From: Gammaproteobacteria bacterium
GTDB lineage: Bacteria > Pseudomonadota > Gammaproteobacteria > SZUA-229
Length of the DNA: 64,000 bases
Reading direction: 5' to 3'
NCBI GenBank assembly: GCA_030148865.1
Contig: JASBSR010000040.1
Coordinates: 62,518 to 126,517 of the forward strand
This document shows positions 14,344 through 20,376 of this stretch, piece after piece. The position numbers and the translations under genes were made by a program. Each line of letters begins with the position of its first letter. Position 1 is the stretch's first letter. Below the pieces are notes generated by a model. The model did no database searches and was not told where the DNA came from. It worked only from the letters and a program-made list of their open reading frames with translations.

Positions 14344-15603
14344 ATGAGTAAAAAAAACGCGTTTTACGCGCAATCCGGCGGTGTTACCGCAGTTATTAAT
14401 TCATCTGCCTGCGGCGTTATCGAAACTGCACGCAAGCACAAAGACAAAATCGGCAAAGTCTACGCCGGTCGCAACGGTATTATCGGCGCTCTCACCGAAG
14501 ATTTGATCGATACCAACAAGGAATCCAAATCAGCGATTGCTGCTTTGCGTTACACGCCTTCCGGCGCTTTTGGTTCCTGCCGTTTCAAAATGAAAAGTCT
14601 TGAAGCCAACAAACTTCAGTACGAGCGTTTGATCGAAGTTTTCAAAGCTCACAACATCGGTTATTTCTTTTACAATGGCGGCGGTGACTCGGCTGATACC
14701 TGTCTGAAAGTATCACAGATCGGTGAAAAAATGGGTTACCCAATCACTGCCGTACACGTGCCTAAAACGGTCGACAATGATTTACCAATTACCGACAACT
14801 GCCCCGGTTTTGGCTCTGTCGCCAAATACATTGCTGTGTCCACCATGGAAGCCAGCTTCGACGTAGCATCGATGTGCGCCACATCGACCAAAGTATTCGT
14901 CCTGGAAGTGATGGGCCGTCACGCCGGCTGGATTGCCGCTGCTGGTGCCATGGCTTCGACCAAAGAACACGAAATTCCTATCGTTGTCCTGTTCCCGGAA
15001 GTTGAGTTCAACCAGGAAAAATTCCTCAAAACCGTCGATGACAAAGTTAAAAAATTTGGTTACTGCTCAGTCGTCGTTTCTGAAGGTGTGCACTGGCCGG
15101 ATGGCAAATTTCTCGCCGAAACCGGTTTGAAAGATGCCTTCGGACACAGCCAGCTGGGCGGTGCTGCACCTGTGGTTGCCAACATGATTCAGGAAGGCCT
15201 GGGCTATAAATATCACTGGGGCGTGGCCGACTATATGCAGCGTGCTGCACGCCATATCGCGTCCAAGTCTGACGTGGATCAGGCTTATGCCACTGGTAAA
15301 GCCGCGGTTGAATACGCGCTCAAAGGCCATAACTCAGTCATGCCTGCGATCAAACGCGTTAGCAATAAGCCGTACAAGTGGAAAATCGAAATGGCACCGT
15401 TAAGCAAAATCGCCAACGTCGAGAAAATGATGCCAAAAAACTTCATTTCTAAAGACGGTTTCAGCATCACACCAAAATGTCGTGAATATCTGGCGCCGCT
15501 GATGAAAGGCGAAGACTATCCTCCATATAAAGATGGTCTGCCAAAATATGTCACACTGAAGAAAGTGGCCGTTGCTAAAAAACTGGCGCCTTTTGAAATT
15601 TAG
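14344..15603 (+). CDS. pfp: Pyrophosphate-dependent 6-phosphofructokinase
   Basis: 419 aa PFK-A family (GGGDSADT, MGRHAGW). PPi-type length and architecture. Strong RBS CAGGGGAA. Confidence 0.8.
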   Translation: MSKKNAFYAQSGGVTAVINSSACGVIETARKHKDKIGKVYAGRNGIIGALTEDLIDTNKESKSAIAALRYTPSGAFGSCRFKMKSLEANKLQYERLIEVFKAHNIGYFFYNGGGDSADTCLKVSQIGEKMGYPITAVHVPKTVDNDLPITDNCPGFGSVAKYIAVSTMEASFDVASMCATSTKVFVLEVMGRHAGWIAAAGAMASTKEHEIPIVVLFPEVEFNQEKFLKTVDDKVKKFGYCSVVVSEGVHWPDGKFLAETGLKDAFGHSQLGGAAPVVANMIQEGLGYKYHWGVADYMQRAARHIASKSDVDQAYATGKAAVEYALKGHNSVMPAIKRVSNKPYKWKIEMAPLSKIANVEKMMPKNFISKDGFSITPKCREYLAPLMKGEDYPPYKDGLPKYVTLKKVAVAKKLAPFEI

Positions 15604-15866
15604 ACTGAGGTCAAGCTCGATAAGACACGCAAACTCCTTACCATGCCTTGAGCGTTGTAGCTATAACCGCAACGTTGCAGGCATGGCGCTGGGGGAAGTG
15701 ACAGGAGCTTTATTGCTTGAACCCACTTTGCAGATACGTTCAAGAAATAATACTCCTTAGCTATCGACATATAACAATAATTTATGCCATCAGACAGAGA
15801 ATTGATAATCAATACAGGCCATTCTTAAATATACTGAGCAGTCAAAAATCGTCAACGGAGAGTACT

Positions 15867-16520
15867 ATGAGGTTAATTCTGTTAGGCGGCCCCGGTGCCG
15901 GCAAAGGTACCCAGGCTGGATTTATCAAGGAGAAATTTGGCATTCCGCAAATTTCTACCGGCGACATGTTACGCGCTCACGTGAAATCGGGTTCAGAGCT
16001 CGGCAAAGCCGCAAAAAAAATTATGGATGCAGGTGGTCTGGTCTCAGACGACATCATCATGGGCATGATCAAGGAACGTATCCAACAGGCCGATTGCAAA
16101 ACAGGCTATCTATTCGATGGTTTTCCCCGCACCCTGCCGCAGGCGGATGCGCTCAAAGCGGCTGGCATCGCTGTCGATGCTGTTATCGAAATTGATGTCG
16201 ATGATGCCGAGATTATCAAACGCATGTCCGGACGTCGTGTCCATCTCGCCTCGGGCCGTACTTATCATGTTGAATTCAACCCACCGAAAGTCGCCGGCAA
16301 GGATGATGTGACCGGTGAAGATCTGATTCAACGTGACGATGATCAGGAAGCCACTGTCAAAAAGCGGCTTGAGGTGTATCACGATCAAACCGAACCATTG
16401 ATTCAATATTATTCGCAATGGTCGGCAGCAGGTGGCGACGGCGCTCCCGCCTACCACAAGATTGCCGGCATCGGCAGTGTCGAAGATATACGCGATTCCA
16501 TCTTCAACGCACTAACTTAA
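15867..16520 (+). CDS. adk: Adenylate kinase
   Basis: 218 aa from the ATG at 15867. P-loop [17 protein letters not shown] and LID-domain residues. Confidence 0.9.
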
Positions 16521-16533
16521 TTTGTTTGAACTG

Positions 16534-16560
16534 AAGCCCTGTATATGCAGGGCTTTTTTG
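16534..16560 (+). terminator. Rho-independent terminator after adk
   Basis: aagccctg-tatatg-cagggctt followed by ttttttg. Confidence 0.6.
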
Positions 16561-18609: not shown

Positions 18610-18635
18610 ATAATCTGCCGCTTCGGCACACCAAG

Positions 18636-18661
18636 GCCCCGCAATGCGGGGCCTTTTTTTA
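18636..18661 (+). terminator. Rho-independent terminator after hppA
   Basis: ggccccgc-aat-gcggggcc followed by ttttttt. Confidence 0.7.
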
Positions 18662-19176
18662 ACAGCATCACAAACTGGTGGAGTATTTGCCGCCAGCCTA
18701 GTTATCGATTCCCAAAGAGTGATTTAGAACACAGTTTTATGCTATATCTACGGTCAGGATGTTTGTCTACAGGGAGTCTGGAAATGATTCAAAATCACCC
18801 GCACAAAAACCACCCGTCTGCGACCGCACTCAGCGATTTCCGCTGTATGGCCTGCCTGGTCATGGTCATACTGATCGTTGCCAGCACATCACTGGCTTTG
18901 ATCATGACTGACTGGGCCGACTGAGCGCTGACTTTTCGAACAGGCCGCTGCCACCCCCCCTCCGACTACGAATATTGCCCACTTTGAGGTAGAATGCGGC
19001 GCTCGAATCAGTGGTCGTGCCCAGGTGCTGAGCGGAATCCGCGTTTGAGCCTGAACCTAAGCCAACAGCAAAATGTAACGGCCTCACCGGATTTTTAATA
19101 TTTAATAGTTTATAAACCCGCTTTAACTAAACAGGACTGGCGATAACGCCAGCACTACCGCCCTCTGGAGATCCTA

Positions 19177-20376
19177 ATGATTAAACCTCATGGTTCTGAC
19201 ACTCTGAACCCTTTGTTTGTATACGATGCAGCCAAAAACGAAGCGCTGCAAAAAGCAGCCGCGGACCTGCCCGCGATCATCGTCAGCTCGGCCGCTGCCG
19301 CCAATGCAGTGATGCTCGGTGCCGGCTATTTCAACCCGCTGACCGGTTACATGAGCAAGGCCGATGCCCTGTCAGTCGCCAAAGACATGAAAACCACTGC
19401 CGGCCTTTTCTGGCCGACCCCGGTTTTAAATCTGGTGGAAAATGCTGGCAATATCAAGGCTGGCGACCGGATTGCACTGAAAGACCCCAATGTATCTGGT
19501 CATCCCGTGCTGGCGATCATGGATGTTGAGGCGGTCGAAAGCTTCAGCGATGAAGACATGGCCATGATGACCGAAAAAGTGTACGCACCTGCCGCTGGCG
19601 AAGCTCACCCCGGCGTGGATGCGTTCAACTCACAGGGCAAAGTTTGCCTGTCTGGCCCCATCCAGGTGCTGAACTTCTCTTATTTCCAGAGCGAGTTTCC
19701 AGATACCTTCCGCACGGCGGTCGAAATCCGCAATGAAATCGCCGAACGCGGCTGGAAAAAAATTGTTGCTTTCCAGACCCGTAACCCGATGCATCTGGCC
19801 CACGAAGAACTCTGCCACATGGCCATGGATCGTTTAGGCTGCGATGGCCTGGTAATCCACATGCTGCTCGGCAAACTGAAAAAAGGTGACATCCCGGCTC
19901 CAGTTCGCGATGCTGCGATTCGCAAAATGGTGGAGCTGTATTTCCCGGAAAACAGCGCCATGGTCACCGGCTACGGTTTCGACATGCTCTACGCCGGCCC
20001 ACGCGAAGCCGTGCTGCACGCGGTGTTCCGCCAGAATATGGGCGCCACCCACTTCATCATCGGTCGCGACCACGCCGGTGTTGGTGATCACTACGGTGCC
20101 TTCGATGCCCAGACCATTTTCGACAACGAAGTGCCCAAAGACGCTCTCGACATCGAAATCTTCAGGGCTGACCACACAGCCTGGTCGAAGAAACTGAACA
20201 AGGTGGTGATGATGTGCGAAGCGCCGGATCACCAGAAAGAAGATTTCATTTTATTGTCCGGCACCAAAGTCCGCGAAATGCTGGGCAATGGCGAAGCACC
20301 ACCAAAAGAATTCTCGCGCCCTGAAGTCGCGAAAATCCTGATCGACTACTACCAGAGCGAAGCAGCTAATGCCTGA
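19177..20376 (+). CDS. sat: Sulfate adenylyltransferase (ATP sulfurylase)
   Basis: 399 aa with QTRNPMHLAHEEL and GRDHAGVG motifs of homo-oligomeric ATP sulfurylase. Confidence 0.9.
   Translation: MIKPHGSDTLNPLFVYDAAKNEALQKAAADLPAIIVSSAAAANAVMLGAGYFNPLTGYMSKADALSVAKDMKTTAGLFWPTPVLNLVENAGNIKAGDRIALKDPNVSGHPVLAIMDVEAVESFSDEDMAMMTEKVYAPAAGEAHPGVDAFNSQGKVCLSGPIQVLNFSYFQSEFPDTFRTAVEIRNEIAERGWKKIVAFQTRNPMHLAHEELCHMAMDRLGCDGLVIHMLLGKLKKGDIPAPVRDAAIRKMVELYFPENSAMVTGYGFDMLYAGPREAVLHAVFRQNMGATHFIIGRDHAGVGDHYGAFDAQTIFDNEVPKDALDIEIFRADHTAWSKKLNKVVMMCEAPDHQKEDFILLSGTKVREMLGNGEAPPKEFSRPEVAKILIDYYQSEAANA

Follow-up and report, generated by a model that had tools for sequence, protein, structure and literature searches.

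A pyrophosphate and adenylate gene cassette beside the ATP sulfurylase gene of a putative gammaproteobacterial sulfur oxidiser

In a 64,000-nt stretch of gammaproteobacterial DNA (contig JASBSR010000040.1; hereafter the window), the genes for a pyrophosphate (PPi)-dependent phosphofructokinase (PPi-PFK; pfp), adenylate kinase (adk), a membrane-bound H+-translocating pyrophosphatase (H+-PPase; hppA) and ATP sulfurylase (sat) lie together within 6 kb. Do these genes form one coordinated module that supplies PPi and AMP for sulfite oxidation through adenosine 5'-phosphosulfate (APS), as a sequence-only reading had proposed, or do they stand together in some other way? We lean towards the view that the stretch holds two independently conserved units side by side inside a sulfur-oxidation gene region. 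One would be a pyrophosphate/adenylate cassette comprising ORF109, pfp, the decayed remnant of a 68-aa small open reading frame (ORF), adk and hppA, and the other sat, with what appear to be its own promoter, a 5' untranslated region (UTR) of ~175 nt containing a conserved stem, and its own terminator. On this view the units constitute neither one transcription unit nor a module dedicated to sulfite oxidation.

Gene identities and conservation with and without sat

All four genes are intact and lie on the forward strand within positions 14344–20376 (Table 1), and matches in Pfam, NCBIfam and the PDB uphold the names that the sequence-only reading had given them. Pfp scored 656 bits against NCBIfam model NF010675 (diphosphate-fructose-6-phosphate 1-phosphotransferase; cut-off 273) and 151 bits against the PFK domain PF00365, with every NCBIfam ATP-PFK model falling far under its cut-off. 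Its nearest solved structure is 3HNO (750 bits), deposited as 'pyrophosphate-dependent phosphofructokinase'. Because of this match and the published biochemistry of the Methylococcus capsulatus homologue (cited in PMC4287430), Pfp is predicted to use PPi rather than ATP and to act reversibly on fructose-1,6- and sedoheptulose-1,7-bisphosphate. The mechanically called adk ORF opens at TTG 15717; since the match to NF001379 (367 bits, cut-off 268) covers residues 51–266 of this longer ORF and so begins only at residue 51, the start was moved to ATG 15867, which is also the start called in an identical public contig (L084), whose sequence breaks off within hppA.

The start of hppA was likewise corrected, to ATG 16591, as the family match opens at residue ~25 of the longer ORF, whose TTG start would make the gene take in the adk terminator. 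HppA matches the full-length PF03030 H_PPase domain (892 bits, model positions 2–645 of 645) and aligns over its full length to 8B37, a 'K(+)-insensitive pyrophosphate-energized proton pump'. In the alignment it bears a Lys/Thr signature where the Vigna enzyme reads GNTTAAIGKG, and it matches the motif in the form tested, GNTT[A/K]A[I/V][G/T]KG with Lys (and Thr) replacing Ala/Gly. We take this Lys/Thr pair to be the mark of the K+-independent class, to which the reversible Rhodospirillum enzyme belongs. Pumping of H+ rather than Na+, and the capacity for PPi synthesis, are predicted from this class; all NCBIfam models matching HppA are labelled 'sodium-translocating', a label that is uninformative on the ion pumped.

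Sat consists of a PUA_2 and an ATP-sulfurylase domain, has no fused APS kinase and scored 389 bits against TIGR00339. The closest solved structures are 1JHD from a Riftia symbiont (647 bits) and 4DNX from Allochromatium vinosum (630 bits), with other solved ATP sulfurylases at 210 bits or less, and Sat is 87–88% identical to that of Thiothrix. Ratios of non-synonymous to synonymous substitution (dN/dS) against the closest relative were 0.020 for pfp, 0.058 for adk and 0.042 for sat; all genes tested (0.02–0.06) are under strong purifying selection. That Sat uses PPi, that APS reductase uses AMP and that Adk interconverts adenylates, on which the proposed module was built, is textbook biochemistry.

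Conservation of the gene order was surveyed by scanning one genome per species with Sat, keeping 80 loci and locating the partners by tblastn; 33 of the gammaproteobacterial loci, those having 7 kb or more of sequence before sat, were evaluable. The pfp-adk-hppA trio lay upstream of sat in nine of these 33 species genomes, and the other 24 lacked the full trio there. The nearest species-level genome is an uncultured Thiotrichaceae metagenome-assembled genome (MAG) with a Sat 94% identical to that of the window. Four architectures were distinguished. Architecture A, seen in nine gammaproteobacterial MAGs and the window, runs kinase, regulator, rhodanese, S24, FKBP, ORF109, pfp, (small ORF), adk, hppA, variable spacer, sat, and its members form a clade with PFP identity of at least 87%. 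In Thiothrix species (architecture B) the order is sat-aprB-aprA-adk-FKBP-ORF109-pfp, with no hppA nearby, and in two other gammaproteobacterial MAGs (architecture C) aprBA...sat is accompanied by hppA-adk-pfp on the opposite strand. Nitrospirota/Thermodesulfovibrionia-like genomes (architecture D) carry adk-sat-aprBA with hppA ~8 kb further on: hppA lay within 10 kb of sat in 13 of the 13 loci that had both flanks, and adk was directly upstream of sat in 15 of 18.

The sequence-only reading had made its case depend on conserved synteny, and this expectation was borne out in part: the order is present in nine other species genomes and recurs rearranged in three lineages, but the hppA-sat junction is variable. 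A linkage that outlasts rearrangement in several lineages goes beyond chance and also beyond simple inherited collinearity. Synonymous sites are near saturation even against the closest relative (dS 0.8–1.4), and neighbouring proteins such as FKBP are down to 57–72% identity.

Two side observations concern these loci. Sat of the Nitrospirota-like loci (L027, L031–L033, L036 and others) is 83–87% identical to the gammaproteobacterial sulfur-oxidiser Sat, whereas AprA is only 55–70% and Adk ~40–52% identical; as Sat is far more identical than the adjacent AprA and Adk, the sequences suggest that sat alone was transferred between phyla. Directly before sat, both architecture-C MAGs carry a GalT/HIT-family gene (GalP_UDP_transf + HIT + DUF4921; L081:8589-9665 and L083:6666-7739) that has no homologue in the window and may encode an APS:phosphate adenylyltransferase.

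The cassette looks different when approached from pfp. Metagenome contigs scanned with Pfp gave 80 loci at 68–91% identity, in which adk adjoined pfp in 48 (as pfp-adk-hppA, as adk-pfp-hppA or with adk divergent from pfp) and hppA was present in 31, nearly always directly 3' of pfp; where the contig ran on for 3 kb or more downstream (32 loci), hppA was present in 19. Neither sat nor aprA was found in any of the 80, of which 25 had 8 kb or more of flanking sequence. Since none carries sat or aprA, pfp-adk-hppA is a widespread cassette that is independent of sulfite oxidation. One recurrent geometry is kdsB (CMP-KDO synthetase-like)-adk-pfp-hppA, seen at L088:3422-4195 and in 12 other pfp-anchored loci.

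Two small genes travel with pfp in these loci. ORF109, directly upstream of pfp in many lineages, has homologues 0.4–0.9 kb upstream of pfp in ~25 of the 80 loci by tblastn (19 by ORF clustering). It matched no Pfam or NCBIfam family, and its own family comprises 209 clusters among 1.84 billion representatives. The AlphaFold model of ORF109 (predicted local distance difference test, pLDDT, 92) has an alpha-beta5-alpha topology, for which a structural search returned no convincing solved relative. The second is a 68-aa ORF (MTLEKAHELIAMHSGLGSGYNRNAARMVLGEVMRD...), without a Pfam match, that lies intact directly 3' of pfp in L006 (4168-4371), L035 (3298-3501), L017 (5948-6151) and L059 and occurs in many lineages, including distant pfp-anchored loci. 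In the window it persists as residual similarity with a broken frame.

Transcription signals and the flanks of sat

Each of the four genes had been said to end in its own terminator. This holds for adk, hppA and sat (Table 1) but not for pfp, on the 3' side of which RNA folding gave only a hairpin (~15641–15686) lacking a U-tract. As a pfp terminator this hairpin was rejected; it is part of the 68-aa ORF remnant. Among nine relatives scanned, the sat terminator was kept in all nine and the hppA-type terminator recurred in most (L006, L030, L035, L042, L058, L059 and L066), with the adk terminator present in just L042 and L059. Given the 70-nt gap between adk and hppA and the lack of a terminator there in most relatives, the adk terminator is probably leaky, with a single promoter likely to serve both genes.

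Upstream of sat, a promoter-like block is kept in all architecture-A relatives regardless of which gene precedes it. The -35 region of this block does not resemble that of sigma-70 promoters, so that an activator or an alternative sigma factor may be involved. In the 5' UTR of sat, a stem GCUGGC/GCCAGC that encloses a variable loop was recovered by RNAalifold from 14 sequences, and five of its six pairs showed pairing-preserving double changes in at least one sequence. No match to the sat promoter pattern was found upstream of pfp, adk or hppA, a repeat search gave no element common to the upstream regions of the four genes, and no Rfam family matched in the window. The four genes thus share a strand but are interrupted by strong terminators after adk and hppA, with another closing sat, and no promoter or operator motif common to them, such as a single operon would have, was found. 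Because the hppA terminator, the promoter block and the UTR stem are all conserved, whatever gene lies upstream, sat appears to be an autonomous transcription unit. The idea of four coordinated genes finds no support at this point, since sat has its own promoter block and is cut off by a terminator, and no motif in common with the others was found.

The junction itself is loose. The hppA-sat spacer of 567 nt in the window is the tightest version; in most architecture-A relatives it measures 1–3.9 kb and usually holds a dksA-like zinc-finger gene and msrA, to which some add a cyclic-nucleotide (cNMP)-binding gene and an outer-membrane protein gene. In the closest relative (on a 324-kb contig), hppA and sat are 11.5 kb apart with a chemotaxis operon on the opposite strand between them. 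This operon (~9.5 kb; L085:14246-21260 with L001:1-9122, ERZ25039549 contig_86088) encodes MCP, CheW, CheB, CheD, CheR, STAS, CheA, Hpt and response regulators.

On the other side of sat, tblastn found neither aprA nor aprB anywhere in the 64-kb window. In several sister genomes a small reverse gene, aprB, aprA and a CxxCxxCC gene stand in this order between sat and a Metallophos_2 gene, which places aprBA 1.4–4 kb downstream of sat; in the window, its closest relatives and some other genomes, sat is followed directly by the Metallophos_2 gene. Because the order sat-aprBA-Metallophos_2 is widespread, also in genomes without the cassette, we infer that this sub-lineage has undergone a deletion of the aprBA block next to sat. 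Sat would then depend on an aprBA at some other place in the genome or on a different partner. A homologue search with AprA of a sister genome, whose best 120 matches were listed at 85% identity or more, had none among them on contigs of 223,360 bp, the length of the contig that contains the window, or 323,874 bp, an outcome that is uninformative on this choice. The spacer between sat and the phosphoesterase gene (20377–20927) contains an element resembling a miniature inverted-repeat transposable element (MITE), situated where sister genomes carry a GBBH/ThiS-like gene, aprB, aprA and the CxxCxxCC gene; related sequence occurs three times in one relative (L021). No trace of dksA, msrA, aprBA or CxxCxxCC gene remnants was found in the two spacers flanking sat in the window. 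A 17-nt inverted pair with one mismatch flanks sat (18938–18954 and 20770–20786) and could be a trace of rearrangements around the gene; the signal is weak, as by a rough estimate ~0.1 such pair is expected by chance in the region.

Competing explanations of the co-location

In the reading that we favour, PPi-PFK most likely runs in the Calvin-cycle and gluconeogenic direction, in which it would dephosphorylate fructose-1,6- and sedoheptulose-1,7-bisphosphate with release of PPi rather than phosphate. The K+-independent H+-PPase would couple the cytoplasmic PPi pool to proton-motive force, Adk would balance AMP, ADP and ATP, and Sat would catalyse the final reaction of the APS pathway (APS + PPi -> ATP + sulfate). 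The two units plausibly touch through common pools of PPi and AMP, which is probably why they are found near each other in several lineages. Published work describes a PPi-dependent variant of the Calvin cycle in which PPi-PFK replaces both bisphosphatases and releases PPi, which the pump turns into proton-motive force; pfp and hppA are co-localised in many chemoautotrophs, including methanotrophs and thiotrophic symbionts, and form an operon in ammonia oxidisers (PMC4287430, PMC4949241, PMC5960693). The co-localisation of pfp and hppA that characterises this variant is found in the window.

Several points weigh against this reading. No Calvin-cycle genes (RuBisCO, phosphoribulokinase, FBPase and SBPase among them) occur in the window, and the Calvin-cycle role proposed for pfp draws on homology and the literature. 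Read-through of the adk terminator in this organism is suggested by the 70-nt spacing only. The adjacency of adk and pfp may be partly inherited, given the 13 loci with kdsB-adk, and adk is probably the sole, essential adenylate kinase gene, so that its position may mean little. In addition, many pfp-anchored contigs are short, which makes the counts of missing hppA or adk underestimates or uninformative.

The supply module of the sequence-only reading, in which HppA would run in reverse to feed Sat while Adk regenerated AMP and Pfp shared the PPi, appears unlikely to us, although several points speak for it. The cluster lies between the operon for dissimilatory sulfite reductase (dsr) and sat, sister genomes carry aprBA after sat, HppA belongs to the K+-independent class, and linkage of adk and/or hppA to sat-aprBA is seen in three further architectures from two phyla; in vesicomyid clam symbionts, a single conserved segment unites the genes for Sat, APS reductase, adenylate kinase and pyrophosphatase (PMC2642828). 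If the GalT/HIT gene before sat in two MAGs does encode an APS:phosphate adenylyltransferase, its ADP product would need Adk. A rough estimate also puts the Calvin cycle at ~0.7 PPi per CO2, far below one PPi per sulfite at typical yields, so that another PPi source would be required. Against the module, however, the cassette is widespread without sat or aprA and forms an operon in ammonia oxidisers, sat is transcriptionally separate, the hppA-sat junction varies and often holds unrelated genes, aprBA is missing from the window and seems to have been deleted beside sat in the sub-lineage, and 24 of the 33 evaluable gammaproteobacterial sat loci lack the three genes upstream. Expression in a nematode symbiont points the same way: in Ca. 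Thiosymbion, pfp and the neighbouring hppA are up with the Calvin-cycle genes under oxygen, whereas the sulfur-oxidation genes are up in anoxia (PMC8269255). Moreover, Sat and APS reductase are dispensable in A. vinosum growing on reduced sulfur (PMC3779200).

Separate transcription units and a junction that tolerates unrelated insertions of up to 11.5 kb would suit a neutral neighbourhood, in which sat and the cassette are close by common inheritance in a slowly rearranging region and their proximity has no functional meaning. The collinear order is indeed limited to one clade of related genomes, and adk is a housekeeping gene. We nevertheless regard this explanation as improbable, since the linkage of sat to adk and/or hppA recurs in rearranged form in Thiothrix, two gammaproteobacterial MAGs and the Nitrospirota-like genomes, where the divergence of AprA and Adk does not fit simply inherited collinearity, and the order has been kept despite the near-saturated synonymous sites and the divergence of neighbouring proteins such as FKBP.

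A bolder proposal, which we hold to be very doubtful, is that ORF109, pfp, the 68-aa ORF, adk and hppA form a five-gene unit, with adk and the small proteins as unrecognised members, that is wired to Sat in Thiotrichaceae-type sulfur oxidisers. Under this hypothesis HppA would act as a proton-driven PPi synthase whenever the PPi demand of Sat exceeded the supply from PPi-PFK and biosynthesis, turning proton-motive force into ATP via PPi, and ORF109 would be a regulator or partner of PPi-PFK.

Surrounding genes, published parallels and meaning

The features of the region are collected in Table 1. At the upstream end, the Pfam order Nitrate_red_gam, Fer4_8, Pyr_redox_2+Fer4_20, Fer4_11, NrfD, CobB/CobQ-like is consistent with the tail of a reverse dsr operon, whose gene names are assigned from domain content and order; dsrAB would lie upstream of the window. 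Such a reverse Dsr system would be the cytoplasmic source of sulfite. The linker block between the dsr genes and the cluster (10523–13171) also precedes the cluster in L017, L021, L042, L058, L066 and L085, and every architecture-A genome, like Thiothrix, has the FKBP/SlyD-like gene upstream of pfp.

Table 1. Features of the sat region, with positions counted from the first letter of the window
Feature	Position	Strand	Remarks
Tail of reverse dissimilatory sulfite reductase operon (putative dsrM, K, L, J, O, P, N)	1810–10188	+	Pfam domain order
IscA-like dsrR-type gene	10185–10499	+	104 aa; Fe-S_biosyn in identical public contig
Histidine kinase	10523–11701	+	Pfam; gene call in L084
LuxR-type response regulator	11707–12360	+	Pfam; gene call in L084
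Rhodanese	12371–12850	+	Pfam; gene call in L084
S24 peptidase-like gene	12854–13171	-	Pfam; gene call in L084
FKBP/SlyD-like peptidyl-prolyl isomerase	13292–13771	+	NCBIfam matches below cut-off; Thiothrix FKBP_C gene homologous
ORF109, uncharacterised protein	13910–14239	+	109 aa; directly upstream of pfp in many lineages
pfp, PPi-dependent 6-phosphofructokinase	14344–15603	+	419 aa; NF010675 and 3HNO matches
pfp-adk spacer with decayed 68-aa small ORF remnant	15604–15866	+	Alignment with relatives, RNA fold
adk, adenylate kinase	15867–16520	+	217 aa, start corrected; NF001379
Intrinsic terminator after adk	16533–16562	+	Hairpin + U-tract, z = -3.2
hppA, membrane H+-translocating pyrophosphatase, K+-independent type	16591–18609	+	672 aa, start corrected; PF03030
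Strong intrinsic terminator after hppA	18633–18662	+	-26 kcal/mol, z = -4.9
sat promoter-like block	18964–18995	+	GACTACGAA...CACTTTnnnGTAGAAT; ~180 nt 5' of start codon; conserved
sat 5' UTR stem-loop	19136–19153	+	6 bp; ~25 nt before start codon; conserved
sat, ATP sulfurylase of sulfur-oxidiser type	19177–20376	+	399 aa; PUA_2 + ATP-sulfurylase domains
Strong intrinsic terminator after sat	20394–20435	+	-28.6 kcal/mol, z = -5.3
MITE-like element	20522–20758	.	~237 bp, 22-nt terminal inverted repeats; in sat-phosphoesterase spacer
YfcE/Metallophos_2 phosphoesterase	20928–21461	+	Pfam, NCBIfam; conserved downstream neighbour, far edge of absent aprBA block

Beyond the Metallophos_2 gene follow an ECF sigma factor, a DsrE-like gene, molybdenum-cofactor genes, a divergent Nap-like cluster, and nirS with haem d1 genes. 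The unusual nitrate-reductase-like cluster (29027–38252) combines genes for a NapC/NirT cytochrome and a dihaem cytochrome c with three NapG-like genes, two NapH-like genes, an unassigned 238-aa ORF and the gene for a molybdopterin enzyme of 906 aa that reached only 334 bits against NapA (cut-off 904). At 39575–48414, a run of genes for haem d1 biosynthesis, named from their domains, comes after nirS (cytochrome cd1 nitrite reductase): uroporphyrinogen methyltransferase, NirF/N-like, NirD/L/G/H-like, a radical-SAM protein and a second cytochrome-d1-domain protein. With dsr genes upstream and Nap-like and nirS genes downstream, the gene content marks the organism as a sulfur oxidiser that denitrifies and has reverse Dsr. 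An SCP2-domain protein (49947–50444) and two U32-peptidase genes (58892–60872) resemble UbiT/UbiU/UbiV, which would serve O2-independent ubiquinone synthesis and would fit an anaerobic, denitrifying lifestyle. Candidates for sulfur trafficking are three rhodanese-domain proteins, one with a VTT membrane domain and one with an ArsR-type helix-turn-helix, and the DsrE-like protein (12371–12850, 52562–53560, 54461–55159 and 24272–24760).

Several known neighbourhoods resemble parts of this one. The Nitrospirota/Thermodesulfovibrionia-like loci share a closely related Sat, adk directly upstream of it and an H+-PPase (57–63% identical) within 10 kb; unlike the window, they lack pfp and carry aprBA alongside. 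Should these organisms reduce sulfate, as we presume from their lineage, Sat would make PPi there and HppA would hydrolyse it. A. vinosum, also a gammaproteobacterial sulfur oxidiser with reverse Dsr, has a Sat of the same type (630 bits, as above), but its sat is co-transcribed with aprMBA, whereas in the window sat is monocistronic with its own terminator and is accompanied by neither aprBA nor a membrane anchor gene. The published pfp-hppA pair (M. capsulatus, ammonia oxidisers and thiotrophic symbionts) has a pfp of the same family, an H+-PPase gene downstream on the same strand and a chemolithotrophic host. The window differs from it in having adk between pfp and hppA, in adding ORF109 and the decayed 68-aa ORF, and in the position of the cassette between dsr and sat. 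By its functions, the window can also be likened to the conserved segment of vesicomyid clam symbionts, in which Calvin-cycle genes stand with sat, APS reductase, adenylate kinase and pyrophosphatase genes and which was listed as a conserved region with no mechanism proposed (PMC2642828).

With both the pfp-hppA pair and the co-location of sat, APS reductase, adk and pyrophosphatase genes already published, the neighbourhood is genuine but for the most part not new. Our literature search for adenylate kinase together with PPi-PFK and H+-PPase found no work treating adk as a member of the group, and that for an H+-PPase linked to Sat in sulfite oxidation found none. The regular company that adk and two uncharacterised small genes keep with pfp-hppA, not mentioned in the literature searched, may therefore be new. 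This sub-lineage, moreover, keeps sat under strong selection despite the apparent loss of the adjacent aprBA. The source from which ATP sulfurylase of sulfur oxidisers draws its PPi is a modest yet genuine gap in the bioenergetics of sulfur oxidation, and a neighbourhood that links Sat to a reversible proton pyrophosphatase would point to a source.

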